This document shows, piece after piece, positions 1 through 32,867 of a DNA stretch of 38,670 nucleotides (positions are counted from its first letter, which is position 1; every line of letters starts with the position of its first letter). A program made the position numbers and the translations under genes. The stretch comes from a virus. The notes beneath the pieces were generated by a model that was not told where the DNA came from, ran no database searches, and saw only the letters and a list, made by a program, of their open reading frames with translations. The DNA is taken from positions 1 through 38,670 of IMG/VR virus record IMGVR_UViG_3300045988_088524; one strand, 5' to 3'.

Positions 1-155
1 ACACAACACCCGAAGATGATAAATGTGAGTATTGGCTTGGCGAATCAAATCCCCGCTGCCTTAACACCAAAAAAGCAATCGATTTGTGTTCATGCGGCGG
101 CGATAAATCGAAATGTGACTTCTACGCACACGTAAGAAAGATGGCTAATGAGTAG
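1..155 (+). CDS. 3' end of the junction-spanning gene that starts at 38142 (dATP/dGTP diphosphohydrolase-domain, MazZ-like protein); partial only because of the linearisation
   Basis: The frame of 38142..38670 continues without a stop through the duplicated 75 nt to TAG at 153-155. The tail is Cys-rich (CEYWLGESNPRC...CSCGGDKSKCDFY). Confidence 0.7.
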   Translation, partial: TTPEDDKCEYWLGESNPRCLNTKKAIDLCSCGGDKSKCDFYAHVRKMANE

Positions 156-450
156 CCGCAATAAAAAGCTCGAATATGATGGGGTGGTGCAGCCAATACT
201 GCGCTACCTCAATTCGTTACCGAACACCAAGGCAATCAACGTTCACGGAAGCGTCTTCTGTGAGCGGGGAACGCCTGACATCATAGGGTGTATTGATGGA
301 CGTGCTATACTGTTAGAGTGCAAGAGAAGCCCCATGGAAGCCGCAGAAAAAATACAGGAATGGCGTATGGCGGAATGGCGCAGCGCGGGAGCCATTGCGG
401 CACGGGTTGATAGTGTCGACCAAGTCAAGGAACTACTAAAAGACAAATAA
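148..450 (+). CDS. VRR-NUC / PD-(D/E)XK nuclease
   Basis: 100 aa with the core GTPDIIGCIDGRAILLECK (D...E.K). The ATG overlaps the upstream stop by 8 nt. It is the last gene of the plus-strand operon. Confidence 0.75.
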   Translation: MSSRNKKLEYDGVVQPILRYLNSLPNTKAINVHGSVFCERGTPDIIGCIDGRAILLECKRSPMEAAEKIQEWRMAEWRSAGAIAARVDSVDQVKELLKDK

Positions 451-472
451 GAGCGGGGAGAAATCCCCGCTC
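451..472. terminator. Hairpin terminator between convergent plus- and minus-strand units
   Basis: GAGCGGGGA-GAAA-TCCCCGCTC forms a 9-bp GC-rich stem. On the minus strand it is followed by TTATTTGTCTTTT. Confidence 0.6.
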
Positions 473-477
473 CTGTC

Positions 478-780
478 TTATTCCACAGCGTTGACTTTCC
501 GCATGACCGCGTTGTACAATCGTGGATTTGTAGCTTGTAGTGTAGTCATAAGTTCGTCAACTATGGCGAACACCTGTACGCTGTCTTTACCTGATACCGC
601 CCGTAAGAAGTCCGTTTCTCCGTTCACATCAAGCGGTGTAGGCTGCTCGGTGGGAGCCGCGCCCGCAAGATGGTCACGAACAATGTAGAGTGGTGCGAGT
701 TTCTCCACGACGGCATATGTGGTATCGCGCTTCGATTCCAGCATCAAAATTTCGTCATTAATGACGTCAAGGTTTAGCAT
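478..780 (-). CDS. hypothetical protein (last gene of accessory cassette)
   Basis: 100 aa from ATG 780, preceded by GGAGGGGTG. The track start at 819 is an upstream alternative codon. Confidence 0.5.
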   Translation of the reverse strand: MLNLDVINDEILMLESKRDTTYAVVEKLAPLYIVRDHLAGAAPTEQPTPLDVNGETDFLRAVSGKDSVQVFAIVDELMTTLQATNPRLYNAVMRKVNAVE

Positions 781-799
781 AGTCACCCCTCCAGTGTGC

Positions 800-1369
800 T
801 CAGCACATCTTAACCCCAATGTGCTTGGACTTCTTCTTGTACTTTTCGTGCATGTCAGGCTGGCATAAGTAAATAGCCGCTAAGTCATAGTCTGTGGAAG
901 CAAGTTCAGCCTGTTTGCGGCTTGCCTTTTTTAACTCCTGGTCTACGTCCTTTACAAGCTCACCAACCTTGCAAGCTGCTGCAACCTCGCCAAGTTCCAT
1001 TAGATTTGTGTACGCTTTCTCATAGAGTTTCTTGGTTTCGGACTCCCACTCGCACCAACGGTTAAAGCCATCACGGATAGCTCTCTTCTTAGTGTTGGCG
1101 TCTACTTCCTGCCTTGTGTACCCACGCCATGATGTAGGTATTACCTCAGGATTCTTTGTTGCGTCTTCGGACAGCAATTTGTTGTAGTGGTTTACATAGT
1201 ACCTGATAAGCCCTCTGCGCTCGCTGAACTCGCACATGGCGTGATACTCGTGACAGCGCTTGAAGCCGTGCAGATTGAGAAAGTCATAATACTCCGCGAA
1301 CTGGTCATGAAGCATTATGCCCTCAATCATGTGTGCGTTTATCTCCGCAAATATCTCGGCTACGGTCAT
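800..1369 (-). CDS. ferritin-like four-helix-bundle protein (putative)
   Basis: 189 aa with RBS GGAGGAA. The N-terminal half resembles ferritin helices A/B by eye (LHGFKRCHEYHAMCEFSERRG), but the ExxH ligand pattern is not conserved (EFSE). Confidence 0.35.
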   Translation of the reverse strand: MTVAEIFAEINAHMIEGIMLHDQFAEYYDFLNLHGFKRCHEYHAMCEFSERRGLIRYYVNHYNKLLSEDATKNPEVIPTSWRGYTRQEVDANTKKRAIRDGFNRWCEWESETKKLYEKAYTNLMELGEVAAACKVGELVKDVDQELKKASRKQAELASTDYDLAAIYLCQPDMHEKYKKKSKHIGVKMC

Positions 1370-1405
1370 TTCTAAGTTCCTCCAGTATCTTTGTAAGTTG
1401 ACTCG

Positions 1406-1804
1406 TTACAGCTTTTCAACCGTAACGGCAAGGTTACTGATTACCGACGCGACGCCGCCCAGCAGTATAGACAGCATAGAACTGTCGCAGCCACAGGCAT
1501 TGCGAACTATGGCGGTTACGCCAATGTTAACAGTGTCGCCCACTGCCGCTGTCTGAGAACCTGTAGCACCGACGATAGCGACACCATCTTTCTGCGCCGT
1601 AATAGAAACTGTACCTGCAGCGGTGGGAGCTACAGTCGCTGAGACGTTAACGAGGTAATATCCCTGACCGCAGAGTGTGATTGTATTGCCATCCTGTCTG
1701 ATATTCGGACCGTATCTACGGGTAGTAACACCAACGGGTACGATGCTTCCCACTGCAACAGTGGGGCTGGCTGTGTTAGTAGTGTAGATTGCACTTTTAC
1801 TCAT
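1406..1804 (-). CDS. BclA C-terminal-domain-like (C1q/TNF-like jelly-roll) protein
   Basis: 132 aa from ATG 1804 (RBS GAAAGGAA). It is a beta-rich Val/Thr/Ala pattern, GYYLVNVSATV...VSITAQKDGVAIVG...NLAVTVEKL, resembling exosporium BclA C-terminal domains. Confidence 0.45.
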   Translation of the reverse strand: MSKSAIYTTNTASPTVAVGSIVPVGVTTRRYGPNIRQDGNTITLCGQGYYLVNVSATVAPTAAGTVSITAQKDGVAIVGATGSQTAAVGDTVNIGVTAIVRNACGCDSSMLSILLGGVASVISNLAVTVEKL

Positions 1805-1830
1805 GATAGTATTCCTTTCAATATAAATTA

Positions 1831-1854
1831 ATGGGGCGACTATTGCCGCCCCAT
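1831..1854 (-). terminator. rho-independent terminator inside accessory cassette
   Basis: Minus strand ATGGGGCG-N8-CGCCCCAT, followed by TAATTTATATT. Confidence 0.5.
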
Positions 1855-1892
1855 TGTAAGCCTCGCCAAATAGGGCGTGTGTCATGCATCAA

Positions 1893-2528
1893 TTAGATAT
1901 TGTTGCAGCCGCACGAATTACAGCCGCAGAAAGGGGAAGCTCCTGCGTTGTAGGTGTAACCCATGGGGTATCTTACGACACCACAGAAGCGGCTATCCAT
2001 CTCAAGGCTGGAAACCTTGTCGCGGAGAGCCTGAATTTCGTTGGTCTGAATGAGTGCGCGTGTAGCTTCGCCCTCCGCGTGAATTGCGGTAGTGATGTCG
2101 CAGGTCTGTCTGTCCATCTGTGCTGCAAGATTAGCAGTCGCAAGACGGTTATCGCAGCAGCACTGTGCAAGCTGAGCCTGAATGTTGTTGCCGGTCTGCA
2201 TAATGGTAGTGTTAGTACCCGCCTGAGCGAGCGCTACTTCCTTACCAAGCTGGCCGATGCCGCCCTGTATGTCGTAGCCGAGGCTGCAGATACCGTTCCC
2301 GATGTTCGTCAGACGGTCGTTGAGCTGACCGAACTGCTGACCGAACAGGATTTCCTGCTGTGAAGCGGCAGTGGCATACTGACCGTATTCGCCCTGTCTG
2401 TTACCCCAATTGTTGCCGTTAAAGCCCCAGAAGAGGAACAGGAGAATAACCCACCACGCATTGCCACCAAAGGCACCGTCAGTGTCCTTTGTAACAGCGG
2501 CGAGGTCAGAAAGTGAATAATTGTCCAT
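1893..2528 (-). CDS. membrane-anchored Q-rich coiled-coil protein with Cys clusters, function unknown
   Basis: 211 aa with a TM segment (WWVILLFLFWGF), QCCCDN mid-protein and a C-terminal FCGCNSCGCNNI. RBS GAAAGGAAAA. Confidence 0.5.
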   Translation of the reverse strand: MDNYSLSDLAAVTKDTDGAFGGNAWWVILLFLFWGFNGNNWGNRQGEYGQYATAASQQEILFGQQFGQLNDRLTNIGNGICSLGYDIQGGIGQLGKEVALAQAGTNTTIMQTGNNIQAQLAQCCCDNRLATANLAAQMDRQTCDITTAIHAEGEATRALIQTNEIQALRDKVSSLEMDSRFCGVVRYPMGYTYNAGASPFCGCNSCGCNNI

Positions 2529-2574
2529 TGCTATTTTCCTTTCGTTAATGTATTATAAAGCGTTGCGCACCGCT

Positions 2575-2796
2575 TTATTTCAGTATTCCCTGCAGGCTCT
2601 GCGCTTGCTGTTTAAGCTGCTCAAACTGAGCCTGCGACATTTTGCCGCTCTTCAAAAGTTCCTGTACGATAGCCTGCGGGTCCTTGCCCTGCAGTTGCTT
2701 CTTAAACTCGGCAAACTGCCTTAGCATCTGAATGGGGTTACTATTCGGAATCGCCGGAGTGTTTGCTTGCATTGCCTGTAGTATCGGATTTATCAT
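2575..2796 (-). CDS. small helical Q-rich protein, function unknown
   Basis: 73 aa. The ATG is preceded by GGAGGA at 8 nt. The start lies 56 nt inside the 3' end of the upstream gene, in another frame. Confidence 0.45.
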   Translation of the reverse strand: MINPILQAMQANTPAIPNSNPIQMLRQFAEFKKQLQGKDPQAIVQELLKSGKMSQAQFEQLKQQAQSLQGILK

Positions 2797-3115
2797 TTAA
2801 CATATCCTCCAATCTTTTCACACGATTCTCAAGATTGCCTACATCAACAGCGGGTGCGGGCTGATATGGTGTTATGCTATAAGGTGCAACAGTCTTATAG
2901 CCTGCGCCATCAGACTGCACCAGCCACACTATTGGTGCAGATTCGTCAAGCAGCAGTGCCGAACTATTGGGTGCTAGCTGATAAGCACGTGCCCCATTTT
3001 CACCGTTTACTTTGGTTATCTCACTTCGCATGGGAGGCTGATTCATTCCCATTGGGTTGTTGTATGCGTTGTACCCACCATAACCCGAGTACCCATACGT
3101 GTTTGTTCCGTACAT
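2741..3115 (-). CDS. protein with G/Y/N-rich N-terminus and C-terminal coiled coil, function unknown
   Basis: 124 aa, beginning MYGTNTYGYSGYGGYNAYNNPMGMNQ. RBS GAGAGGGGGA. It is the first gene downstream of the 3142-3171 promoter. Confidence 0.5.
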   Translation of the reverse strand: MYGTNTYGYSGYGGYNAYNNPMGMNQPPMRSEITKVNGENGARAYQLAPNSSALLLDESAPIVWLVQSDGAGYKTVAPYSITPYQPAPAVDVGNLENRVKRLEDMLNDKSDTTGNASKHSGDSE

Positions 3116-3141
3116 GCTAATCCCCCTCTCTTTCTATTTTT

Positions 3142-3171
3142 ATTATAACATACAGAAATACCCCTTGGCAA
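3142..3171 (-). promoter_or_regulatory. sigma-A-type promoter of the accessory cassette
   Basis: Minus strand TTGCCA (3171-3166), 18 nt, then TGT-TATAAT (3147-3142). Confidence 0.55.
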
Positions 3172-3184
3172 TGAAGCCAAGGGG
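3161..3184 (-). terminator. rho-independent terminator ending the late/lysis operon
   Basis: GCCCCTTGGC-N6-GCCAAGGGG, followed on the minus strand by TATTTCTGTATGTT. Confidence 0.65.
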
Positions 3185-3200
3185 CAACTTTCGTGCGTAT

Positions 3201-3401
3201 TTATTTGAGATGTTTAAACAGTCGTTCCTCCGACTTATAGACGACATTTTTAGTTTGGCGAACGGAAAGCCCAAACTCTTCCGCAAGTGGCTCGTAACAG
3301 ATACCGTCAATTAGCCTACGTTTGAGTATCTTGCGGTCACGTTCACTTTTAATCCACTCGTCAACTAGCGTAGACAACTCAGAGTTCGGTAAGTCAATCA
3401 T
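3201..3401 (-). CDS. sigma-70 region-4-like HTH protein
   Basis: 66 aa. ERDRKILKRRLIDGICYEPLAEEFGLSVRQTKNVVYKSEERL matches the region-4 HTH pattern. Confidence 0.5.
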   Translation of the reverse strand: MIDLPNSELSTLVDEWIKSERDRKILKRRLIDGICYEPLAEEFGLSVRQTKNVVYKSEERLFKHLK

Positions 3402-3476
3402 GGTGATTTTCTTCGCCTCGTTCCCTTAGATTTCCCGTTTTTCTTGGTTCGAGTTCGTGTGTTGGTTTTTGTTACT

Positions 3477-3755
3477 TTAATCCGTGCCGCCATTAGTTAT
3501 GTCACCATCATTCCCGACGAAGTTCGCATTACTGTTTCCGTCTGCCTGTATTTCCACAGTGGATGTTTCACTGGACGAGTAATCGTACTGACACCAAGCC
3601 CACAGCCACAGGGCGTTACTGGCGAACACTAACGCAACCGAAATGATAAGAGCGATGATGAGCCTTTTCATCGTTCGTTCCGAGCGAGCAATTGTACTTT
3701 CAAACACAACATATGGGACGTTATCCATATTATTTGACTTCCTTTCTAGTGTCAT
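3477..3755 (-). CDS. single-pass membrane protein of the lysis cassette
   Basis: 92 aa with TM segment LIIALIISVALVFASNALWLWAW. There is an ATGA overlap with the upstream stop. An alternative start is at 3728. Confidence 0.45.
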   Translation of the reverse strand: MTLERKSNNMDNVPYVVFESTIARSERTMKRLIIALIISVALVFASNALWLWAWCQYDYSSSETSTVEIQADGNSNANFVGNDGDITNGGTD

Positions 3756-3988
3756 GTCTTTTCCAAATCATCAATCCTGTGATTGGCAACGGCGATTTTT
3801 TCGTCAAGGACAGCTTCATGCTGTTCGAGCTTATAAACTCGCTCAACAACGCCGTTATGTTTATCAACTTTTTTCTCGAGCTGTTCAATGCGGTACAGCG
3901 TTTTGTTGTGGCCGGTGAGTGCCCCGAAAAAAGAGCCGCCAAGAGAGCCAATCAAAGCGATTAATGCGAGTATGATAGCTTCTGACAT
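3752..3988 (-). CDS. xhlA: XhlA-family lysis-associated membrane protein
   Basis: 78 aa with an N-terminal TM segment plus a coiled coil (RIEQLEKKVDKHNGVVERVYKLEQ). Confidence 0.6.
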   Translation of the reverse strand: MSEAIILALIALIGSLGGSFFGALTGHNKTLYRIEQLEKKVDKHNGVVERVYKLEQHEAVLDEKIAVANHRIDDLEKT

Positions 3989-3993
3989 TACCT

Positions 3994-4206
3994 TTATTCC
4001 TCCGATTTTTCGTTTTCTTTGGTTGCTGCCTTGTCAACAGCACCCTCGGACAGTATGTATACCGCCAGAACGCCCACCGAGGAAATGACCCCCGCCACAC
4101 GTTCCTGACTCTCCGCATTCTGCCCAAACGCCATCATTACGGCAATAACAACGCCCGAAACTGCCGCCCAAAACTTGCGGCTCGAAAGCTTGCGTTTCCA
4201 GTCCAT
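3994..4206 (-). CDS. holin (two TM segments)
   Basis: 70 aa with two hydrophobic segments and a charged C-terminal tail. It lies directly downstream of the endolysin. Confidence 0.6.
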   Translation of the reverse strand: MDWKRKLSSRKFWAAVSGVVIAVMMAFGQNAESQERVAGVISSVGVLAVYILSEGAVDKAATKENEKSEE

Positions 4207-4209
4207 ATG

Positions 4210-4953
4210 TTACACCTCCTTGCTCCGCCGAACAGCCGTCATACCCATTTCCGAGCATTTTTTCATAATCCCCGCTGCCTGTTCGGCGGTTAAATCGTCC
4301 GCCACTGCCGACACTGAGAAACGCTGTTTATCAACCCCGGAAAAGCCGTTTAAACAGCGTTTTTTAATTGTAGTCGGATAATCATAATAGGAGATATTTG
4401 TATCAACATCTCCCGAAATTCCCGGAACAGAACCTTTCCACGAATTTTGCCACATACCCACATTTCGGCAGGCAGTAGGCTTGATATTTTCGACCCTTGC
4501 CGACCATGCCGCATAGCGTTTGGTTATTTCGGGCGATAAGTTTGACGCAAAAAAGCTGTCGAAACTGTACACGCCTGCATAATATCCTGCGGCTTCCAAG
4601 CGTCCGCAAAAAGCCTTAACGAGGTCATCGCAATTACCTCTAAGGACGTGCGAACGCTCCTCGATATCGAACCAGACGGGGAACTCCAGCTGTTTATCTT
4701 TAATGAGCTTCAGACAAAATTCCGCTTCTTTTTCGGCATCCGCTGCGGAATCCGCATAGCTATAATGATATGCTCCGACAGGCAGCCCCACACGCTTACA
4801 CTCGCTGTAATTGCGCTCGAACTGCTCATCTACCTGACTTGCATGCTCCCTGCCGAAACCACATCTAAGGATTGCGAAATCGACCTTGCCGCTTGCTTTG
4901 ACCTTATCCCAGTCAATGTTTCCATTATGCTGAGAAACATCTATTCCTCTCAT
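4210..4953 (-). CDS. endolysin, glycoside hydrolase family 25 muramidase
   Basis: The N-terminus MRGIDVSQHNGNIDWDKVKASGKVDFAILRCGFG is the typical GH25 signature. Confidence 0.85.
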   Translation of the reverse strand: MRGIDVSQHNGNIDWDKVKASGKVDFAILRCGFGREHASQVDEQFERNYSECKRVGLPVGAYHYSYADSAADAEKEAEFCLKLIKDKQLEFPVWFDIEERSHVLRGNCDDLVKAFCGRLEAAGYYAGVYSFDSFFASNLSPEITKRYAAWSARVENIKPTACRNVGMWQNSWKGSVPGISGDVDTNISYYDYPTTIKKRCLNGFSGVDKQRFSVSAVADDLTAEQAAGIMKKCSEMGMTAVRRSKEV

Positions 4954-5049
4954 TTAATAACCTCCGTCCCCATGCCTGCGCCATGTCTGGCGCAATTGCA
5001 ATTTCTCGGTCATGTCCGCCATAACTGGCGGGTCTGTTGGTGTCATCAT
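4954..5049 (-). CDS. 31-aa ORF between tail and lysis genes
   Basis: MMTPTDPPVMADMTEKLQLRQTWRRHGDGGY. RBS AAGGGGG. Its TAA abuts the endolysin ATG. Confidence 0.25.
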   Translation of the reverse strand: MMTPTDPPVMADMTEKLQLRQTWRRHGDGGY

Positions 5050-5060
5050 TTCAAACCCCC

Positions 5061-5669
5061 TTAAATTGTCCATACAGTCGTGTATCCGGCGTTGATGTTT
5101 GGTCCCCATAGATTTTCTGTTACCGTACCGTTACTGCTGGTACTCACGACTTTAATGTAGCCATCCGACTGTATCGACGACATATTGCCAGGCGTCTTGC
5201 CATAGTCAGGCACACGCAGTGCTATCTTATGCAACACAAGTTGTCCGTCGCGGTACGTGTCCACATAGTACACCATGTTGTCCTTATACGGCGCACCAGG
5301 AGGGCTAAACACGCCATACATCACCTGTGTTATTTCACCGTCCGAAGATATGGCTGTAAGATAAGGCCAGTCTGCTCCATCCATGCTCGGCTTGAACTCA
5401 CTATCCACATCAATTGTGGGCGGCGTTATCTCGGTGCCGTCAGGCAGCTGTGGTTTGATTTGGTCAATGACCCATTGTATAAGGTCATCAGCGTCCTTTT
5501 GGGATAACCCTCTGACATTGACGGTGACAGGGTCAAACCCGTCCGCGTTATCATCGGCTGCATGATAAGTGCCGTTTTTGGTAATAGTCTTGCTGATAAT
5601 TGTGCCGCCCGAGTCGGCTTTATGACCCAGCAGATACCCGACACAAACACCGGTTTCAAAGTCGTTCAT
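5061..5669 (-). CDS. distal tail protein, candidate receptor-binding protein
   Basis: 202 aa from ATG 5669. The call rests on its position immediately after Tal; no motif was recognised. Confidence 0.35.
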   Translation of the reverse strand: MNDFETGVCVGYLLGHKADSGGTIISKTITKNGTYHAADDNADGFDPVTVNVRGLSQKDADDLIQWVIDQIKPQLPDGTEITPPTIDVDSEFKPSMDGADWPYLTAISSDGEITQVMYGVFSPPGAPYKDNMVYYVDTYRDGQLVLHKIALRVPDYGKTPGNMSSIQSDGYIKVVSTSSNGTVTENLWGPNINAGYTTVWTI

Positions 5670-5683
5670 ACACGCACACACCC

Positions 5684-6982
5684 CTATTCGTATTTAATCG
5701 GCACTGCCCCGAAGTTGGTTAACTGCTTTTCGGCATCATAACTACATGCGAACGATGCCGTTGTGTCGTCCGTGTAGGTGATAGTAATGTTTACTATATC
5801 ATCATCGGCGTTCTTCTTGGCGGTAATTGAAGCTACATCAGCCTTACTTGTAGCCACCATATCCATGCCCGCGTCAACCTTACTTGTGGCCGCTACACTA
5901 GAAACGGATCGCTTTTTCGTTCCCAGGTCAATTGACGTGTATCTTTCATGCGCCACGTCAAACACGGTCTTGATGCATCGCTGTGTCACTGCCGACTCAC
6001 CATGACCCAAGTTGATGCTTATCGTGTCGCCAAGTTCGATATGGTCTACGTCGGTTAAATGTGCGTACTCCACGGTGCTACCCCTCGGTACGACCTTTAC
6101 ACTACATCTATTGGCGCTATTTCCGATGTCCAGGTTGGCTCTGACGAACTCGTGAATACATTCGTCTAAGTCGCTCGGCTGAGGCTTTTCGGAGAATTTA
6201 CTGGAACAGTCCAGAATGCATGGCTTGAAATAAAGGTCATTTACACTGGTGTTGGCGTACAGGGGCTTAAACACGGGGTCGGTGTAAACTATAGTTTGTG
6301 CACCGTCCCCTGCGTTAGGGTCTGCGCCTTTCCAAAAGGCACACACGCATGTGTATTGGCCGCTCGTGTCCCATTCCATTGTAGCAGTCTGGATATTCTC
6401 GCCATAGCTGACGGAAACGCCCCTATCACTGCCGCGACGGTCTAAGAGGGTTATTGCGTTGTTCGTAAACACCCAATCCCCACCCCACGTGGAAGCCATT
6501 CTATTTCTGACGGACTTTATCGCAGTGGGAGTCGGCACACTCCACTTATACACGGAGTTGTTGGTCAGCTCTGACACGAAAGTAAACCCCGGAACGTTAC
6601 CCTGTATGCTTGAATTGAGGTGTGCTATCATAGTGTCAACACTGCCCTCAGTGTCTTCGTAGTCCGTGTTGGGAAAGCAAACGTATCTGTCAACGGCATA
6701 AGTGGTATGCTCCGCCCAAATCGTAACCACTCCGCTAATAGGCTTCGATATCTTGTAGACCCTGAACAGCTGCGGGGTTTCGCAATAAGGGTTCGGCTTG
6801 GCTTTCACCCAACACGCCTCATGAATGTCTGAGTAGTGCACTCCAACTACGGGGTATTGCATCACCAACTCAAAAGACGTGTTCAGTTCTTCAGTTACAC
6901 TACACGTTATGACGTCGCGCAGAATGCCGACACCATTACCGCTGAAATCCGTTGCATCGCTGCTGTACAATATGGGAAACAT
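5684..6982 (-). CDS. tail-associated protein Tal (prophage tail endopeptidase-type N-terminal domain)
   Basis: Begins MFPILYSSDATDFSGNGVGILRD. RBS GGAGG. TAATG overlap with Dit. Confidence 0.75.
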   Translation of the reverse strand: MFPILYSSDATDFSGNGVGILRDVITCSVTEELNTSFELVMQYPVVGVHYSDIHEACWVKAKPNPYCETPQLFRVYKISKPISGVVTIWAEHTTYAVDRYVCFPNTDYEDTEGSVDTMIAHLNSSIQGNVPGFTFVSELTNNSVYKWSVPTPTAIKSVRNRMASTWGGDWVFTNNAITLLDRRGSDRGVSVSYGENIQTATMEWDTSGQYTCVCAFWKGADPNAGDGAQTIVYTDPVFKPLYANTSVNDLYFKPCILDCSSKFSEKPQPSDLDECIHEFVRANLDIGNSANRCSVKVVPRGSTVEYAHLTDVDHIELGDTISINLGHGESAVTQRCIKTVFDVAHERYTSIDLGTKKRSVSSVAATSKVDAGMDMVATSKADVASITAKKNADDDIVNITITYTDDTTASFACSYDAEKQLTNFGAVPIKYE

Positions 6983-7731
6983 TACAAGTACCTCCAATTT
7001 GGTTCAATGGACAGCACGTTGATGTCGCCTGACCAAGAAATGGCGTTTTCACCAGGAGATAGCGTGGGGAACTTAGTCCAATTTACTAAGGTGTTAAGTC
7101 CACCAGTTGCGCCCGACACGTCCAACCTGTCACTGTCAACAGTAGCAATCACAGGCTGTTTGGGGCTTCGTATCTCAAAGGTTTCGCCGTTCACAACGAG
7201 CGTACCCGCGCCACGAATGTTCACGGAAATTCTTGGGTATGCCACGAAAGGCGTAGGGTTGGTGAGGGTGCTGCTGTTCTTGGGAGTCTGTGAAGTTTGC
7301 CGTAACGCCCGCCGTGTGGTCTGCGTGGTCTGTACAGACTGTACAGTGTCAGCAAATCTGAATGGAGAACAGTCGAATACTATTGTGAATGGATTTAGCA
7401 AATTCAAGCGGGTCTGCAGTTCTGCCGCACTTGTGATGACTGCTTTGTAGTGGAATCCGCTTGTAATGCCAAGTTTACGTTCGCCAAATGTCCCGAGCAG
7501 GAACTCGGAAACGTTAGCCATGGCTGTGGTTACGTCATCTCCCAGACAGTAGCAGGTCGCTGTTGCTGTGCGGGAATCGTAGGCATCGTTGAATATGTGC
7601 ACATTTCCACTTCGCCCCGCTATCTTTACCGTTGTGATTGACGGCACGAGTGGGGAGAGTTCTATAGGCTTCTGCAAAATGACACCCTTTGACTTTGCCG
7701 AAACCCCGTCAAGTGTGAAATCAAGCTCCAT
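6982..7731 (-). CDS. distal tail protein Dit
   Basis: 249 aa, beginning MELDFTLDGVSAKSKGVIL...KIAGRSG, located after the tape measure. RBS GGGAGGTGG. Confidence 0.75.
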   Translation of the reverse strand: MELDFTLDGVSAKSKGVILQKPIELSPLVPSITTVKIAGRSGNVHIFNDAYDSRTATATCYCLGDDVTTAMANVSEFLLGTFGERKLGITSGFHYKAVITSAAELQTRLNLLNPFTIVFDCSPFRFADTVQSVQTTQTTRRALRQTSQTPKNSSTLTNPTPFVAYPRISVNIRGAGTLVVNGETFEIRSPKQPVIATVDSDRLDVSGATGGLNTLVNWTKFPTLSPGENAISWSGDINVLSIEPNWRYL

Positions 7732-10033
7732 AGCCCGCCACCTCCCTATCGGTTATAAACTGTATTCGTTCGGAAATTGCCGCCGCGAGTTCGTTGAAGT
7801 CCTGATATTGAACCCCATTGATGTTGATAACGATGCCGCCGAAACCTGACCCACCAAGGCCGCCCGACTTGGCGGGCTTAACTTCAGAAGTGGAGAAGTC
7901 CAGACCCTCGTTGATGCTCTTGGCAACCCCCGGAATCGTATCATCCCAACCCTCGCCAAGACCGAGAGCCAGAAACTCGCCCATTTCGGCAAACATCCTT
8001 GAGGGGCTGTGGATACCGAAGAAGTCCCTCAGTGTTTCCCTCAGCTTCTCGCCGCCCTCCTTGAACTTCTCCTTAACGCTTTCGACTCCGTTTTTGAAGC
8101 CCTCGCCAATGCCGTTCATCAACTGCTTGCCTATGTCACCCCAATCGACGGATAAAAATGCATCCTTGATTGCTGAGATGATTTCGGGGATTGCACCCAC
8201 TATCATGACGATTGCCTTGGGGATGCCCTCAATAATTGCCGTGAACAGGTTAACGCCTATGTCTATCATGAGCGAAATGTTGTTCATGAACGTTTCAATA
8301 CTCGCGGTTATAATTTCGGGCAGGGCTTCGACAACGTTCATAATTATTGTGGGCAGGTCAGCGATAAGTGACGAGAACAGTTCAACGCCCATCTGCATCA
8401 ATTCAGGAAAAGACTCCGCCAACGCTCCCGTAATCGAGGCTATTATCTCGGGGATTGCCGACACGAGATTTGTGATTATCGCAGGCAGGTCTTCAATAAT
8501 CGCCGTGAATAAGTCAATGCCCGCCTGAATTAGCTCAGATGTCAGTCCAAGTATAGCATTTACTATAGCGGAAATCAGCTCAGGAATTACCGCCACTATA
8601 CCACTAATTATGTCAGGCAAAGCACCAACTAGCGATGTGAGCAATGTAATTCCCGCGTTAACAATCAGCGGAATGCTTGTAACTACAGCGTCTATGACTG
8701 CGTTTATGATGGTCGGTATCATCGCCACTATAACAGGAATGTTTTCAACCACTGCCGTTATGACGTTCGTGATTATTATTGGAACAACTGAAATCAGTGT
8801 CGGAATCATTTCAATTATGCCTACTGCCAGATTGGTTACCAAGTCCAAAACTGCAGTGAGCAGGTTTGACAAAACATCGGGGCCAGTCAGAACTTCGATA
8901 ATACCAGTAACAACCTCGGCTAATGTGTTCATAAGTTCCCCAGAATTGTCGGAAATACCCCGTGTTAACTGGATAATTATTGTCGCGGCTGACTTCGCCA
9001 AATCGGGTAACTGCTTCATTGCGGTGTTTAGCACACTAGGTATTACTTTCACTAAATCCGTCGTTAGCGTAGTAACACTGTTAACCAAAATCGGGAAAAC
9101 GTCACTAAGTAGCTGCTCCAAGTGTGGCGGGATAACACTCGCTAAACTGGTTATTCCATCGAGTATTCGCGGGATAGTTTCACCGATTCGGGGAATAATG
9201 TTCTCGCCCACAGTTACGACACTCTCGACCAAGTTATCAATCAGCACACCGAGGTCTTGTGATGGGTCTGCCAGACCCGTCATTAAATTACCCCATGCCG
9301 ATTGCATGGAGGAAATGCTGCCCTGAATGGTGGTGCTTGCTTCTTTAGCGGTTGTTCCAGTTATGCCCATTTCTGTCTGTACTGCATGGATAGCTTCGAC
9401 TATTTTCGCATAACCAACTTCTGCCAACTGTGCGCCAATAGTCTGCGTATCGCTCAGGTCAAGCATAGCATCACCGAGTACACCAGAGTCGTTGACGAGT
9501 CTAGCCATTTCCGAAGCAGTACCGCCGTAGCCGAGCTTCAGGTTGTCGAGCATGGTGTAGTTCTGCTTGGCGAAACCCTGATAGGCATTCTGTATGGACT
9601 CTATGCTTGAACCCATTTTATTGGCGTTGTCCGCCATGTCGATTACGGCTTGGTTCGCCGCTTCAGCAGCAGCAGCTGTATCACCGTCAAGGCTCTGAAG
9701 CAATGACGCTGAGAAGCTGGTCACTGTTTCCATGTAGGCGTTTGCAGACATGCCCGCCGATTTATACGCAGCATCAGCATAACCCTGCACAACACCGGCA
9801 GAGTTCTTAAACAGGGTTTCCACGCCACCCACAAGCTGCTCATACTCTGCGTACTCGTCAATAGCACTCTTAGTTAGTGCTGTAACCCCCGCAGCAGCAG
9901 CAGTTACAGCCGCCCCGCCAACCTTTGCGGCGGTCGCAAGACCTGTCTTCAGCTTTCCAGACAAGCCGCTTATGCCGCTTTCGGCTTCAGATGTATCCGC
10001 ACCTATGCGTACAAACAGATCAAGCAGGTTCAA
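7721..10033 (-). CDS. tail tape measure protein
   Basis: 770 aa. It has a TP901-type N-terminal core, a long hydrophobic helical repeat region and a TTG start with RBS AAGAGGTGA. Confidence 0.9.
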   Translation of the reverse strand: MNLLDLFVRIGADTSEAESGISGLSGKLKTGLATAAKVGGAAVTAAAAGVTALTKSAIDEYAEYEQLVGGVETLFKNSAGVVQGYADAAYKSAGMSANAYMETVTSFSASLLQSLDGDTAAAAEAANQAVIDMADNANKMGSSIESIQNAYQGFAKQNYTMLDNLKLGYGGTASEMARLVNDSGVLGDAMLDLSDTQTIGAQLAEVGYAKIVEAIHAVQTEMGITGTTAKEASTTIQGSISSMQSAWGNLMTGLADPSQDLGVLIDNLVESVVTVGENIIPRIGETIPRILDGITSLASVIPPHLEQLLSDVFPILVNSVTTLTTDLVKVIPSVLNTAMKQLPDLAKSAATIIIQLTRGISDNSGELMNTLAEVVTGIIEVLTGPDVLSNLLTAVLDLVTNLAVGIIEMIPTLISVVPIIITNVITAVVENIPVIVAMIPTIINAVIDAVVTSIPLIVNAGITLLTSLVGALPDIISGIVAVIPELISAIVNAILGLTSELIQAGIDLFTAIIEDLPAIITNLVSAIPEIIASITGALAESFPELMQMGVELFSSLIADLPTIIMNVVEALPEIITASIETFMNNISLMIDIGVNLFTAIIEGIPKAIVMIVGAIPEIISAIKDAFLSVDWGDIGKQLMNGIGEGFKNGVESVKEKFKEGGEKLRETLRDFFGIHSPSRMFAEMGEFLALGLGEGWDDTIPGVAKSINEGLDFSTSEVKPAKSGGLGGSGFGGIVININGVQYQDFNELAAAISERIQFITDREVAGYGA
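8129..8656 (-). repeat. four tandem 44-aa (132-nt) repeats inside the tape measure
   Basis: Units start at aa 460, 504, 548 and 592 (AGITLL.., AGIDLF.., MGVELF.., IGVNLF..). Each contains LP.II...V.AIPEII. Confidence 0.7.
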
Positions 10034-10706
10034 ACGGTATCACCTCTTATTCTTGCCAAGTTCGTTTTAAAATCGCTCACAATTTCTTCTGGTGTGCGTT
10101 TTTCCTCGGGCTTTGAATTTATTAAGTCGCAATAGCGCACTGAAATATACCCGCCACCACCGATTTTTGCTGTGTTTTCGGTCAACACCCGCAAGCATTC
10201 AGCCAAGTACAGATTGAGGACCGATTGCTCACTTTGCCGCTTTAAAATCGTCGGTATTGCGGCAATCAGCCCCCTTGCACTCATTCTTCTCGGCATACCC
10301 AGCAAAACGGAGGTTACTTCACTTCCTCCGATACGCACGATTTGAAAAAATCCACAAAATCCTTGTCCTGCACTATCTTGCGGATATTCTGCATCACGAC
10401 CATAACATTGACGTGAGCAACTTCGTCGGTTGTAACAGGTCTGGTGCTGAGTGCTACAAGAACGCCGAAAACGTCAACCTTGTGCTTTTTAAGAATTATC
10501 GGCACAAGATTTGTGAGTTTCTCCATGCCAAAAACAAACTGCTGTGCTTTGGTCTTCGTTTCACCGTCATTTAACTTTGTTTTCAGTTCAGATGTGAGCT
10601 GCTCATCAGTCACAATGTTGGCAAGGTATACACTCACTTCACATAGTACGTCAATTGCCTCATTCGCTGTCAGTTCTGAAATCTTACGAACTTCAAACTT
10701 TTCCAC
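10030..10706 (-). CDS. tail assembly chaperone G-T fusion made by -1 frameshift
   Basis: The -1 frame at the slippery site reads ..FFQIVRIGGSEVTS.., which is continuous with ORF 10030..10338. Confidence 0.65.
10314..10706 (-). CDS. tail assembly chaperone (gpG-like)
   Basis: 130 aa, between the major tail and tape measure genes. GTG start preceded by AGGGGGT. Confidence 0.7.
   Translation of the reverse strand: MEKFEVRKISELTANEAIDVLCEVSVYLANIVTDEQLTSELKTKLNDGETKTKAQQFVFGMEKLTNLVPIILKKHKVDVFGVLVALSTRPVTTDEVAHVNVMVVMQNIRKIVQDKDFVDFFKSCVSEEVK
10344..10350 (-). other. -1 programmed frameshift slippery heptamer T_TTT_TTC
   Basis: The zero-frame reads GAT TTT TTC AAA, 27 nt before the gpG-like stop. 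Confidence 0.65.
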
Positions 10707-29216: not shown

Positions 29217-29343
29217 ATCAAAGAAAGCTATCTCAAGCAACATCGCAACCCTCCGCAAGGAGGGCAAGCCCGAAAAGCAGGCAATAGCAATTGCTATGAG
29301 CAAGGCGGGCAAATCTAAAAAGAAGAAAGGTAGAAAATCATGA
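29197..29343 (+). CDS. 48-aa basic protein
   Basis: [52 protein letters not shown] overlap with the methyltransferase start. It is below the track cutoff. Confidence 0.5.
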
Positions 29344-31037
29344 ATGTACTGAGTTTATTTGATGGTATGTCATGTGGTTTGATAGCGTTTACCGAATTGG
29401 GTATCCCTGTAGACAGATACGTTGCATACGAGATAGACAAGTACGCTGTTCAAACTAGTAAACACAATTTCCCAAATGTTGAACAAATGGGTGATGTATT
29501 TGGCGCGGATTTCAGCGTATACGAGGGGTTTGACATCCTTATCGGCGGTTCGCCCTGTACCTATTGGAGCATCGCACAGTCAGCGGACAAGAGAGAGAGA
29601 ACAGCAAGTGGTGTTGGTTGGGAGCTATTCAGTCAGTATGTCAGAGCACTTAAGGAGAGCAAGCCAAAATACTTTCTTTATGAGAACAACAAATCTATGA
29701 GCAAGGAAATCCGAATGTCAATTACTGAAACTTTTGGGTTCGAACCAATTTGTATAAATTCCGCACTCGTTTCTGCACAGAACAGACAACGTTTATACTG
29801 GGTTGGTAAGAGAAATTCCGATGGTACATATAGTAAAGTTGGTGTTGGTCAACCCGAAGATAGAGGAATTCTTCTAAAAGATGTACTCGAGGCTGGGGAA
29901 GATTTGACGTCGAAAAACAAAAGTTGGGTGCTAACATCATCTTATAATGGTGCTGTTCCGTGGAACACCATTGAAAGATGTCAAAGAAACATGGTTGCTG
30001 AGCCAGTAAACACCACTACAGATGGTAAGGCACAATGCCTGAGAGCGACGTGTTATAAAGATGGCATACGGAACATGGTTGGTAACGATGTTGACAAGAG
30101 GACATGTGTAGCTGAGTGTGTGAGCAGTAAGGGTGCTCCATACAATGTAGTTGCTGAACCTGTATGTATGCGTTATGAAAGATCTGAGGAAGCGAAGAAA
30201 TGTCGTAAACAGTATGAGAATGGCGAAATACATCATGGATTCCATGAATTAAGTGAATTGCACCCGAGAACCGATGGAAAAACAAACACGTTATCGACTG
30301 TGTTAAAGGACAACCCGATTTGTGTACCCATCGTTGAATGTGTAAGCTCTCGTGGGGTTTACCGTGACACGGGCAGCAGGAGCAGAAAGTCTGAAGCGGG
30401 GACGGAACAGCACTTTGAAGTGCGTGGTGGGGGTAAAACGAATGCCTTAACTACAGTGCAAAAGGACAATATGGTTGCAGTCGGTGTAAGTATGCAGGTT
30501 GCGGGCAGAAAACGACAAGAAGATGGTTCTTTCGTACGAGTACCTGAAGCTCGTACCGATGGTAAGACGACTGCACTAACCTCAGTAGAGGCGAGAAGAC
30601 TTGTGGCTATACAGGTCGGTGCATTGCCAAGACCAAACGGTGAGTTATCAAAATCGCAGGGCATGCGGATTTACGATTTCAACGCTAAAAGTGTTACGTT
30701 AACGGCTGGTGGTGGTGGTGGCATGGGAGGCAAAACGGGGCTGTATGCTGTACAAGCTGGTAATGAAACAAACACTCCAGTTTACAAAGTAGAAAACGGG
30801 CTTATCGAAATTAACGGTAAGAAGTATCCCATTAAACTGAAAGATGGTTGTTACGCCATACGCAAGTTAACGGTAAACGAATGTAAACGATTACAGACAG
30901 TACCCGATTGGTTTAAGTTTCCCGTGAGTAACACGCAGGCTTACAAGATGCTTGGCAATGGCTGGACCGTCAGCGTAATCATGCATTTGTTGTCGTCAAT
31001 ATTAAAGGAGGAAAATAAGAATGCCGAAGAACACTAA
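29340..31037 (+). CDS. DNA (cytosine-5) methyltransferase with an expanded, internally repeated variable region
   Basis: Motif I LFDGMSCG, motif [11 protein letters not shown], motif VI YENN, motif VIII QNRQR, motif [20 protein letters not shown] and motif X GNGWTV. There are 356 aa between motifs VIII and IX. Confidence 0.85.
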
Positions 31038-32091
31038 GGGCTTATTCCCTGAGGGGATGAACACTGATGGTATGGTCAGCGTGTCTCAGTTGCAGACATT
31101 TATGAGCTGCCCGAAGAAATGGGCGTACAACTATATAGAGAACCTGACCCCGCGCATTGAACGGCCGTTCCTTTCGGTCGGAAAGCTCTGTCATAAGGGT
31201 ATGGAAGTCGCCATGAAATACAAGTGGGAACACGAGCGAGAACCGGGGTGGTGTCGGGAAGATGCTCTTAGAGGGGGTATCTTTGCTATGGAGAGCGAGT
31301 GGCAGGAGTACATGAACAACAATTGTTTCCTGAGCGAGGAAATCCCTGCACAGGAGCAGATACTCGTCGATGCTCAGAGTGTTTTTGAACAGGCATTCTG
31401 GGAGTTCGATATTGACCGATACGAGGTTGTAGACATTTTCAAAGACGGCGTAAAGATTCCTGCGCTGGAGCTGCACTTCTTGATACCCTGTTCTGGCAGC
31501 AAGGGGCTGCACGGGTACATTGACGCAATACTGCGTGAAAAACAGACAGGGCATATTTGGTGTACGGATTACAAATTCCGCAAAAGTCTCTCACCTGACG
31601 AGGACGAGGCGTTTAACATACAGAATGCTGTGTACACAAGAGCCTGCGCCAAGATGGGTATTACTATTACAGGTACTATGACTTGGCAGCACATAAACAC
31701 ACCCACAGCTGACCCCGCTGTGCTGAAAAATGGCTCGTTCAGCCGCGCTAAAATTAAGACTACATGGCAGCATTACGCGGCTGTAGTGGCAGCTTCCGGC
31801 GGCAATCCCGACGAATACCGGGAAGAAATGGAGCTGAAGCTGGCGGACATCGAATGGTTCAGACCTACCCTTGAATACCGCAACCCCGAAACGGTGCAGC
31901 GGATTTGGGAGCAGTCAGTAGTTCCGGCGAGCTGGGCTGTCAAAAGGGCGTATAAGGCAAATAACCCCCGCTTCGTGTACCCGTGGAACTGCAAGATGTG
32001 TCAGTACGGCAGCCTGTGCCAGGCGGAGCTGCGCAATCATGACGCTGAATTTCTCAGGAGCGCCGAATATACAGTCAGAGAAAAGAAATAA
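31021..32091 (+). CDS. PD-(D/E)XK exonuclease, Cas4/RecB-like with 4-Cys cluster
   Basis: An N-terminal Cys (FMSCPKKW), GYIDAI...TDYKFRK, and C-terminal CKMCQYGSLC. Confidence 0.8.
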   Translation: MPKNTKGLFPEGMNTDGMVSVSQLQTFMSCPKKWAYNYIENLTPRIERPFLSVGKLCHKGMEVAMKYKWEHEREPGWCREDALRGGIFAMESEWQEYMNNNCFLSEEIPAQEQILVDAQSVFEQAFWEFDIDRYEVVDIFKDGVKIPALELHFLIPCSGSKGLHGYIDAILREKQTGHIWCTDYKFRKSLSPDEDEAFNIQNAVYTRACAKMGITITGTMTWQHINTPTADPAVLKNGSFSRAKIKTTWQHYAAVVAASGGNPDEYREEMELKLADIEWFRPTLEYRNPETVQRIWEQSVVPASWAVKRAYKANNPRFVYPWNCKMCQYGSLCQAELRNHDAEFLRSAEYTVREKK

Positions 32092-32272: not shown

Positions 32273-32294
32273 AGTAATATAGGAGGTGATAATA

Positions 32295-32867
32295 ATGATA
32301 TTGGTTCCGACAAACCCTAAAGAGGACTTTGTTTCAATCGTCAACAAACATATTAAGCGCGATGGTATTGCAGACTTAATGGATTGGATTGAAACAACAG
32401 ACTTCTTCGTGGCTCCTGCTTCGTCTAGATACCACGGAGCACATGAAGGTGGTCTGCTTGAACATAGTGTGGCAGTCTACCACCATCTTGTGAGCCTCGC
32501 CAACTTTTACAAAGTTGATGTCTCCATGGAAACTATCGCTATTGTAGCCCTGTTCCACGACCTTTGTAAAGTGGGTATGTACAAGACTGAAATGCGTTGG
32601 CGCAAGGACGCGAACAACCAGTGGGAACAGTACCCGACGTACAAACGTGACGAGGATTTCAAATTTGGCGGTCACGGCTCGAAATCAGTATACCTTGTGC
32701 AGAACTTCATAAAGCTGACTCCCGAAGAGGCTGTTGCAATCAACTGCCATATGGGACAGTGGGACGCAACAACTTACAGCGATGTATCTTCAGCTTTTGA
32801 AGACTGCCTGCTGGCGTGGGCGCTCCACGTGGCAGACGAAGCGGCGACTTACATCGACAAATCTTAA
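32295..32867 (+). CDS. HD-domain phosphohydrolase (candidate dNTP/dATP hydrolase)
   Basis: 190 aa from ATG 32295 (RBS AGGAGGTG). Contains LEHS, LFHDLCK and HVADEA. Confidence 0.8.
   Translation: MILVPTNPKEDFVSIVNKHIKRDGIADLMDWIETTDFFVAPASSRYHGAHEGGLLEHSVAVYHHLVSLANFYKVDVSMETIAIVALFHDLCKVGMYKTEMRWRKDANNQWEQYPTYKRDEDFKFGGHGSKSVYLVQNFIKLTPEEAVAINCHMGQWDATTYSDVSSAFEDCLLAWALHVADEAATYIDKS

Follow-up and report, generated by a model that had tools for sequence, protein, structure and literature searches.

A DNA (cytosine-5) methyltransferase (C5-MTase) encoded on a 38,670-nucleotide (nt) stretch of viral DNA (IMG/VR record IMGVR_UViG_3300045988_088524; the whole stretch is called the window here) carries between its conserved motifs VIII and IX an array of six contiguous, apparently exchangeable cassettes (M0–M5), a layout that resembles the multispecific MTases of Bacillus phages. 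That the architecture as such is of the multispecific type is very probable; that the enzyme indeed employs several target-recognition domains (TRDs) and methylates at least two distinct motifs is a further step, which its sequence makes probable though less firmly so. We infer that two or more of the cassettes are active as TRDs, each with a specificity of its own, and that the enzyme has an anti-restriction role. A preliminary description of the window, made from the DNA letters, had already compared the enzyme to the multispecific MTases of Bacillus phages, and this comparison is borne out by the tiling of the variable region, by the turnover of its modules among relatives, by the homology of M5 to known TRDs, and by the occurrence of M3-type modules next to TRDs of the SPR and phi3T type.

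The gene (Table 1) is predicted to encode a DNA (cytosine-5) methyltransferase with an intact set of catalytic motifs. Its product, identical in sequence to a protein already in the databases (P0001; database proteins are numbered P, contigs and loci L throughout), matches PF00145 with E = 3e-39 and 135.8 bits (cut-off 22) over amino acids (aa) 1–555, and TIGR00675 with 117.1 bits, above the curated cut-off of 100.65. The motif order is canonical: FDGMSCG (aa 7–13) is followed by GSPCTYWS with the catalytic Cys73, by ENN (aa 115–117), by QNRQR as motif VIII (aa 147–151), and, after the variable region, by motif IX, which begins at about aa 508, and motif X, with GNGWTV at aa 539; motifs IX–X together span aa ~506–547. 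The catalytic residues are invariant in an alignment of 74 relatives, and the catalytic domain aligns with those of DNMT3A/3B, HaeIII and HhaI with E-values from 1e-18 to 1e-12. An AlphaFold2 model has a predicted local distance difference test (pLDDT) score of ~90 for the catalytic large domain and of 72–90 for the C-terminal part (aa 476–565), which is like the C-termini of Dcm and HhaI, contains columns invariant in the relatives, and aligns with motif IX–X regions over its last ~60 residues. Among proteins of solved structure, the catalytic core best matches, by sequence, the mammalian DNMT3A/3B (~1e-18), ahead of the bacterial M.HaeIII (1.7e-14) and M.HhaI (2e-12); the N-terminal motif LSLFDG is common to the core and DNMT3A/3B, and one database source names the relative P0004 “DNA (cytosine-5)-methyltransferase 3A”.

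Between motifs VIII and IX lie 356 aa (aa 152–507, positions 29793–30860 of the window), a length that had been proposed before and agrees with the positions of QNRQR and motif IX. For comparison, the respective region comprises ~125 aa in the enzyme of Vibrio phage ICP1, ~220 aa in SPR, and ~285 aa in rho11s and H2; within the enzyme's own family motifs VIII and IX lie 204–758 aa apart (median 311), which makes the window enzyme typical of its subfamily rather than an outlier. Six TL-type motifs, spaced 36, 84, 52, 43 and 41 aa apart, are distributed over this region. The degenerate pattern describing them occurred at most once per shuffle in 20,000 shuffles, irrespective of whether the whole protein or the variable region alone was shuffled; the recurrence is far above chance. 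The preliminary description had recognized this recurrence and counted about five modules, overlooking a sixth, KNKSWVLTS at aa 192. All the strings it quoted are present, at aa 227, 311, 363, 406 (given there as 407) and 449, as are the flanks MVAEPV (aa 218), VVAEPV (aa 270), VAECVSSKG (aa 257) and IVECVSSRG (aa 331).

Alignment with the ten closest database relatives (67–86% identity over aligned columns) defined the cassette borders: the variable region resolves into M0–M5, contiguous units of 34–58 aa each that are set off by clean indels in the relatives, that hold exactly one TL-type motif apiece, and that are separated by 2–6 aa. Trautner and colleagues, in 1996, reportedly gave a size range of roughly 35–55 aa for TRD modules. 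The cassettes differ in how widely they are distributed; M0 is present in 69 of 120 relatives, M1 occupies varying array positions in other relatives, and M5 is nearly constant (117 of 120 relatives, at times in two copies). Within the gene, window positions 30127–30160 are 91% identical to a segment of L005 that lies upstream of M1 there, and a 15-nt direct repeat encoding VAEPV occurs at 29994 and 30150. The displaced segment explains what had been taken for duplicated flanks: the strings are real, but they represent conserved cassette junctions (VAEP/VAEC/VVEC) plus one recombination scar (aa 257–272).

Table 1. Features of the methyltransferase gene and of other genes in the window (coordinates refer to the window; P and L numbers denote relatives and contigs)
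Feature	Residues (aa)	Coordinates	Strand	Remarks
C5-cytosine DNA methyltransferase, complete coding sequence	565 plus stop	29340..31037	+	PF00145 and TIGR00675
Catalytic large domain, motifs I–VIII	1–158	29340..29813	+	Cys73, ENN 115–117, QNRQR 147–151
Conserved linker after motif VIII	159–186	29814..29897	+	(nearly) invariant columns in relatives; blastn breakpoint 29890
Cassette M0	187–222	29898..30005	+	swapped in P0002–P0004; absent in P0023/P0024
Cassette M1	223–256	30006..30107	+	absent in P0004, P0005, P0023, P0024
Junction/recombination scar (16 aa)	257–272	30108..30155	+	copy of M3 start, then tail of an alternative M0-type cassette
Cassette M2	273–330	30156..30329	+	among close relatives only in P0009, P0006; absent from L005, L007
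Cassette M3	331–385	30330..30494	+	DNA collinearity with L005, L007 resumes at 30333
Cassette M4	386–428	30495..30623	+	absent in P0005, P0015, P0009, P0006
Cassette M5	429–475	30624..30764	+	HhaI-class TRD core: loop 1, TL dipeptide, loop 2
C-terminal part: conserved beta-strands, motif IX, motif X	476–565	30765..31034	+	Pfam/TIGRFAM matches reach aa 551–555
HD phosphohydrolase		32286..32867		
Family-A polymerase (PolA)		34207..35976		
PurA-like protein	376	36485..37615	+	P-loop GSEGKG
dUTPase		37605..38045		
MazZ-like open reading frame (ORF)		~38139..38670		runs off window end; homologue of L005 PF18909 dGTP diphosphohydrolase

The turnover of whole cassettes is extensive. About 118 closest relatives display 68 module architectures, order swaps included, and the arrangement M0-M1-M2-M3-M4-M5 of the window is unique among the 118. 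Reduced arrays include M3-M4-M5 (P0023, P0024), M0-M3-M5 (P0005) and M0-M1-M2-M5 (P0009); P0002–P0004 have an alternative first cassette (P0002 reads M0'-M1-M3-M4-M5), and in P0020, which reads M1-M4-M3-M5, M4 precedes M3. For cassettes outside M0–M5 no firm class count was obtained, as single-linkage clustering lumped most of them together. The replacements are also seen at the DNA level. P0002 and P0024 are encoded on 36-kb phage contigs, which match the window collinearly (76–81% DNA identity) through the replication module, and in L005 and L007 the MTase gene occupies the same slot as in the window, between a Prim-Pol gene and a PD-(D/E)XK exonuclease gene; blastn collinearity with both L005 and L007 breaks at window position 29890, at the end of the conserved linker, and is restored only further downstream (Table 1).

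Purifying selection acts on every cassette. Against L005, the ratio of nonsynonymous to synonymous substitution rates (dN/dS) is 0.08 for M1, 0.03 for M3, 0.15 for M4 and 0.16 for M5, with 0.025 for the N-terminal and 0.065 for the C-terminal part of the core. Against L062, where synonymous sites are saturated, M0, M1 and M2 are 76–86% identical at the amino acid level versus 70% for the catalytic domain, and the ratio of the proportions of nonsynonymous and synonymous differences (pN/pS) is 0.10–0.17 (0.16 for M0, 0.10 for M2). Taken over both measures, the values are 0.03–0.17 for M0–M4 and 0.16–0.29 for M5, comparable with the core in the same comparisons. Such conservation is not the behavior of decaying pseudo-domains, and cassettes that are better conserved than the core fit a lateral exchange of cassettes.

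The cassettes are not all of one kind. M2, M3 and M4 are mutually similar (pairwise z = 7–11, scores that none of 300 shuffles attained; hhalign probabilities of 98.5–98.7% for M2 versus M3 or M4 and of 99.7% for M4 versus M3) and are, as judged from these scores, paralogues. M0, M1 and M5 gave hhalign probabilities of only 0.3–24% with the M2–4 class and have no more than the short core motif in common with it. That every module is a copy of one and the same repeat was rejected, as M0, M1 and M5 could not be united with the M2–4 class, and the single recurring module of the preliminary description has to be replaced by at least four unrelated classes in profile-profile comparison. Recent tandem duplication was likewise rejected, since the gene contains only weak DNA repeats (74% identity over 38 nt, 87% over 15 nt); the array therefore appears to be old.

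As reference for known TRDs, the multispecific enzymes SPR (K02124), rho11s (X05242), H2 (M72412) and phi3T (M13488) were retrieved from GenBank. They contain one motif of the type xGxSxT[LIV]T[TA] per TRD (three in SPR, four each in rho11s and H2, two in phi3T), spaced 30–48 aa, and their modules are joined by short KIAVE-type linkers. M5 aligns with the rho11s/H2 module QGNRVYDSNGIATTLTSQSVGGLGGQTSLYKVE with a local alignment score of 90 (z = 14.6), and a profile of 25 M5 sequences matches residues 235–267 of M.HhaI (GGQGERIYSTRGIAITLSAYGGGIFAKTGGYLV) with E = 1.6e-5. In this HhaI stretch lie the two recognition loops, 1 and 2, and the conserved TL dipeptide (PMC2790894), which argues that M5 is, by homology, a genuine TRD core. 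Between M0–M4 and the TRDs of the Bacillus enzymes no similarity was detectable by alignment with shuffles; a phmmer search of PDB sequences with the isolated variable region returned nothing even at E ≤ 10, and a profile of M2, M3 and M4 gave only a chance match to solved structures. Specificity guesses based on resemblance (M1 to the RYYKDG of CCGG-specific enzymes, M5 to GC-core sites) were not used.

Modules of the M2–4 class were, however, found in MTases of cultured phages whose cores belong to the same lineage as that of the window enzyme (34–36% identity; E = 1e-17 for the M3-type module): those of Proteus phage Saba (427 aa), Vibrio phage 1.133.O (407 aa) and Vibrio phage ICP1 (332 aa). 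The ICP1 enzyme lacks M5; its VIII–IX region is taken up by an M0-like element and by a single M3-type module, the latter being its main one; in the Saba enzyme, too, an M0-like element precedes the M3-type module. Saba and 1.133.O are, like the window enzyme, multi-module enzymes. The Saba enzyme matches two consecutive SPR modules with a score of 154 (z = 24.7), and both Saba and 1.133.O match the phi3T/rho11s module KRVYSPxGxSPTLTTMGGGHREPK (z = 14–24). The M3-type module thus stands in tandem with homologues of SPR/phi3T-type TRDs, which means that modules of this type occupy TRD slots in arrays with proven TRD types. The window's M1, M2, M4 and M5 are not among the other modules of Saba and 1.133.O, which are the SPR/phi3T TRD homologues just mentioned; the three cultured-phage enzymes further differ from the window enzyme in their smaller number of modules, their proteobacterial hosts and their annotation as generic cytosine methylases. 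For Saba (L061, 832..2115) and 1.133.O (L060, 628..1851) the deposited annotation says merely that, whereas their module content suggests that they are likely unrecognized multispecific enzymes in phages of Proteobacteria. A literature search for methylome data on the ICP1 enzyme found none. When the 55-aa M3 cassette was searched exhaustively against 1.8 billion representative proteins, 45 of the 68 significant matches carried 2–5 copies.

Several observations weigh against the multispecificity that the architecture of the window enzyme suggests. Only M5 ties directly to a structurally defined TRD, while M0–M4 are without relatives among solved structures, and the constancy of M5 amid variable cassettes is also compatible with M5 being the sole competent TRD. 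Inactive “pseudo” TRDs were reportedly described in the Bacillus enzymes by Lange and colleagues in 1991. M0 may be an adaptor element rather than an independent TRD, and because the ICP1 enzyme, although of normal length, contains both an M0-like and an M3-like element, the number of independent specificities may be smaller than six. Lastly, AlphaFold2 did not confidently fold the cassettes: in the model of the window enzyme, computed with a multiple sequence alignment (MSA) of 74 sequences, the core is confident and the whole variable region has a pLDDT below 50, and the same holds for the core and the variable region of a simpler relative, P0024, modeled with a module-matched MSA; the low scores include those of M5. 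As M5 is affected too, and its HhaI homologue is ordered, the models are uninformative rather than evidence for disorder; the scores are probably low because the MSAs are shallow and have been scrambled by the shuffling of modules.

Some of these points would be accommodated if the enzyme were monospecific, with only the HhaI-like M5 working as TRD and M0–M4 being pseudo-TRDs, spacers or non-specific DNA-binding elements. Such an enzyme would account for the near-universal presence of M5, the single module homologous to a structurally defined TRD, for the lack of solved relatives and of confident AlphaFold2 folds for M0–M4, and it has a parallel in the pseudo-TRDs mentioned above. Yet purifying selection on M0–M4 is at least as strong as on M5, the fast turnover of cassettes between collinear phages is hard to square with inert spacers, M3-type modules sit in TRD slots beside homologues of the proven SPR/phi3T TRDs, and M5 is dispensable in the family: the ICP1 enzyme, with its M3-type module, does without it, and in several members of the family it is missing or the array ends in another cassette. 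We consider a monospecific enzyme unlikely. Lower still is the probability that the six cassettes form one composite recognition domain, which would read a single long or degenerate site or methylate almost non-specifically. The tight abutment of the cassettes would suit such a domain, the paralogues M2, M3 and M4 could contact DNA cooperatively, and M0-like and M3-like elements do coexist in an enzyme of normal length; however, relatives with varied subsets and orders of cassettes retain intact motifs under purifying selection, which speaks against obligate cooperative assembly, and the same layout is said to yield discrete specificities in the Bacillus enzymes studied by Trautner and colleagues. 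A multi-TRD enzyme is therefore the reading we prefer, albeit not in its most extreme form, as it is doubtful that each of the six cassettes is an active TRD in its own right.

In this reading, one catalytic core dependent on S-adenosylmethionine is combined with a 290-aa array of six exchangeable cassettes between motifs VIII and IX. The TL-type core of each cassette would sit between two DNA-recognition loops, as it does in solved C5-MTases, and the cassettes would most likely dock by turns on the same core, each offering its own recognition loops. Methylation of several short sequences would then shield the DNA of progeny phages beforehand from several restriction systems of the host, and recombination at the conserved junctions (VAEP/VEC) would lead to gain, loss and reordering of cassettes and thereby to differing repertoires of protection in related phages.

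The closest known counterparts are the multispecific MTases of Bacillus phages (M.SPRI, M.Phi3TI, M.Rho11sI, M.H2I, M.SPBetaI). Like the window enzyme they are orphan phage enzymes with a single core and an enlarged VIII–IX region tiled by modules of ~35–55 aa with one TL-type motif each, their relatives differ by whole modules, and the first TRD-like module of rho11s/H2 is homologous to M5. In contrast, the core of the window enzyme belongs to another lineage (DNMT3A/3B as best solved matches, LSLFDG and ENN motifs), VAEP replaces KIAVE in the linkers, six modules are present instead of two to four, and the enzyme is found in a clade with gut Clostridia as hosts and in a phage with a putative 2-aminoadenine (Z) genome. 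Another multispecific C5-MTase, M.(phi)BssHII from a prophage of Bacillus stearothermophilus, also has several TRDs on one polypeptide. Going by a title cited in PMC8936443, these are located at separated positions, whereas the cassettes of the window enzyme follow one another without interruption in the VIII–IX region, a comparison made by description only. M.HhaI, a monospecific (GCGC) enzyme of solved structure, aligns with M5 in its loop 1 (QG.RIY), TL dipeptide and glycine-rich loop 2, but has a single TRD in a VIII–IX region of ~106 aa; in the window enzyme the HhaI-like cassette is preceded by five others. HsdS of type I restriction-modification systems offers an analogy, in that its TRD cassettes recombine at conserved junctions and so diversify specificity; there, an unrelated protein family and N6-methyladenine chemistry are involved and two TRDs jointly read one bipartite site, as opposed to alternative TRDs on a C5-MTase.

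The MTase gene lies in a phage replication module, and it overlaps by 17 nt with the start of a downstream gene (31021..32091, 356 aa) that encodes a nuclease of the PD-(D/E)XK type (PF12705). This arrangement could suggest a restriction-modification system with the nuclease as the cognate endonuclease, but the nuclease matches the phage exonuclease PHROGs 1218 and 69 (E = 5.5e-28), it is surrounded by AAA_24, DUF669 and PolA genes of the replication/recombination module, and it is syntenic in L005 and L007 despite their differing MTase cassettes, with which a cognate endonuclease would have to change its specificity alongside. The chance that the two genes constitute a restriction-modification system is very slight; given the PHROG assignment and a synteny that holds whatever the cassette content, the MTase is a phage-encoded orphan and its neighbor a recombination-type exonuclease.

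Restriction sites made only of G and C are depleted in the window as a whole. The ratio of observed to expected sites is 0.27 for GGCC (31 sites left) and 0.30 for CCGG (39 sites left), indicating restriction pressure on GC-only sites, which is the kind of site that 5-methylcytosine (m5C) can protect. Less depleted are CTAG (0.48), CGCG (0.59) and GCGC (0.68); GGWCC and CCWGG reach about half of the expected number, and no copy of GAGCTC or GGCGCC is present. The strongest depletion concerns GATC (6 observed versus 106 expected, ratio 0.06).

The preliminary description had gone further and proposed a two-layer strategy, in which m5C complements a genome containing Z. Z-DNA resists adenine-targeting restriction enzymes (PMC8342488), and a Z-genome is plausible from the gene content: besides the HD phosphohydrolase, PolA and MazZ-like genes, the window encodes a PurA-like protein in whose P-loop (GSEGKG) a serine takes the place of the aspartate in Pyrococcus PurA (GDEGKG), and the corresponding S23 of S-2L is among the residues unique to PurZ (PMC8342488). 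Against this, the PurA-like protein scores below the cut-offs of both the PurZ model (NF038379; 236.6, cut-off 300) and the archaeal-type PurA model (249.3, cut-off 368), DpoZ models score far below their cut-offs, and the extreme depletion of GATC is not what one would expect of a genome whose A-containing sites are fully protected by Z. The two-layer proposal is plausible as far as the genes are concerned and weakened by the PurZ score and by GATC. As a whole, the scenario of four to six active alternative TRDs that are shuffled at VAEP-type junctions in phages of gut and rumen Clostridia and are paired with a Z-genome is tentative, and we would not expect all of its parts to hold. The MazZ-like ORF, the last of the window, runs off its end, and positions 108–410 match L005 just downstream of the homologous gene; the longest contig on record for the MTase protein measures exactly 38,670 bp. 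The window is probably a complete, circularly permuted genome.

Nearly all that is known of multispecific C5-MTases reportedly stems from a few Bacillus phages studied in the 1980s and 1990s. The design has been known since the 1980s; the main interest of the window lies in the scale of the combinatorial family and in the possible pairing with Z. In the literature searched, neither this gut-phage family nor any multi-TRD enzyme from outside Bacillus was found to be described, and the Proxi-RIMS-seq2 paper (PMC11954522) does not mention multispecific enzymes. The locus suggests that the multispecific design is widespread and highly combinatorial in phages of the gut and rumen. If so, the family would provide a naturally occurring collection of short and portable cassettes for DNA recognition, the specificities of which could be worked out by subtraction between natural variants, a read-out of the restriction systems that gut Clostridia use against phages, and a possible source of programmable multi-site writers of m5C. 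With four to six active cassettes the enzyme would rank among the most multispecific DNA methyltransferases known, in a large and previously undescribed system. Should the Z-genome context be confirmed, the phage would layer two chemically different strategies of DNA protection, with Z covering the A-containing sites and multi-site m5C the GC-only ones.

A megablast search of the MTase gene against deposited phages returned no match; the nearest deposited relatives are unannotated human fecal phage contigs (~45% identity), and a tblastn search with M0 plus M1 found only the two human fecal phage contigs. In protein collections the family is very large, with more than 8000 matches returned and lengths of 375–971 aa, some with inteins. 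Matches from genome collections are mostly in metagenome-assembled genomes of Oscillospiraceae and other Clostridia from gut and rumen; the few isolates belong to Flavonifractor, Oscillibacter, Robinsoniella and Clostridium. L005 encodes in its early region (4763..5173) a protein with a Spo0A_C domain (PF08769), which hints at an endospore-forming host within the Bacillota and at a possible interference with the control of sporulation. From the Clostridia matches and the Spo0A_C protein, the host is likely a member of the Bacillota.

Some homologues of 780–940 aa (P0021, P0071, P0100, P0111, P0115, P0118, P0120) contain intein/Hint domains (PF14528, PF13403, PF14890, PF07591); in these, motif VIII is shifted to about aa 464–500, which places the intein inside the catalytic domain. 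In L007, a Dam-like methylase (PF02086) is encoded beside the C5-MTase. The multi-cassette enzyme P0009 is encoded on a 112-kb metagenomic contig (L062), where it is surrounded by a methyltransferase island (1..10697) with five further ORFs matching C5-MTases, some of them fragmentary-looking, two Dam-like PF02086 genes and an RNA ligase.

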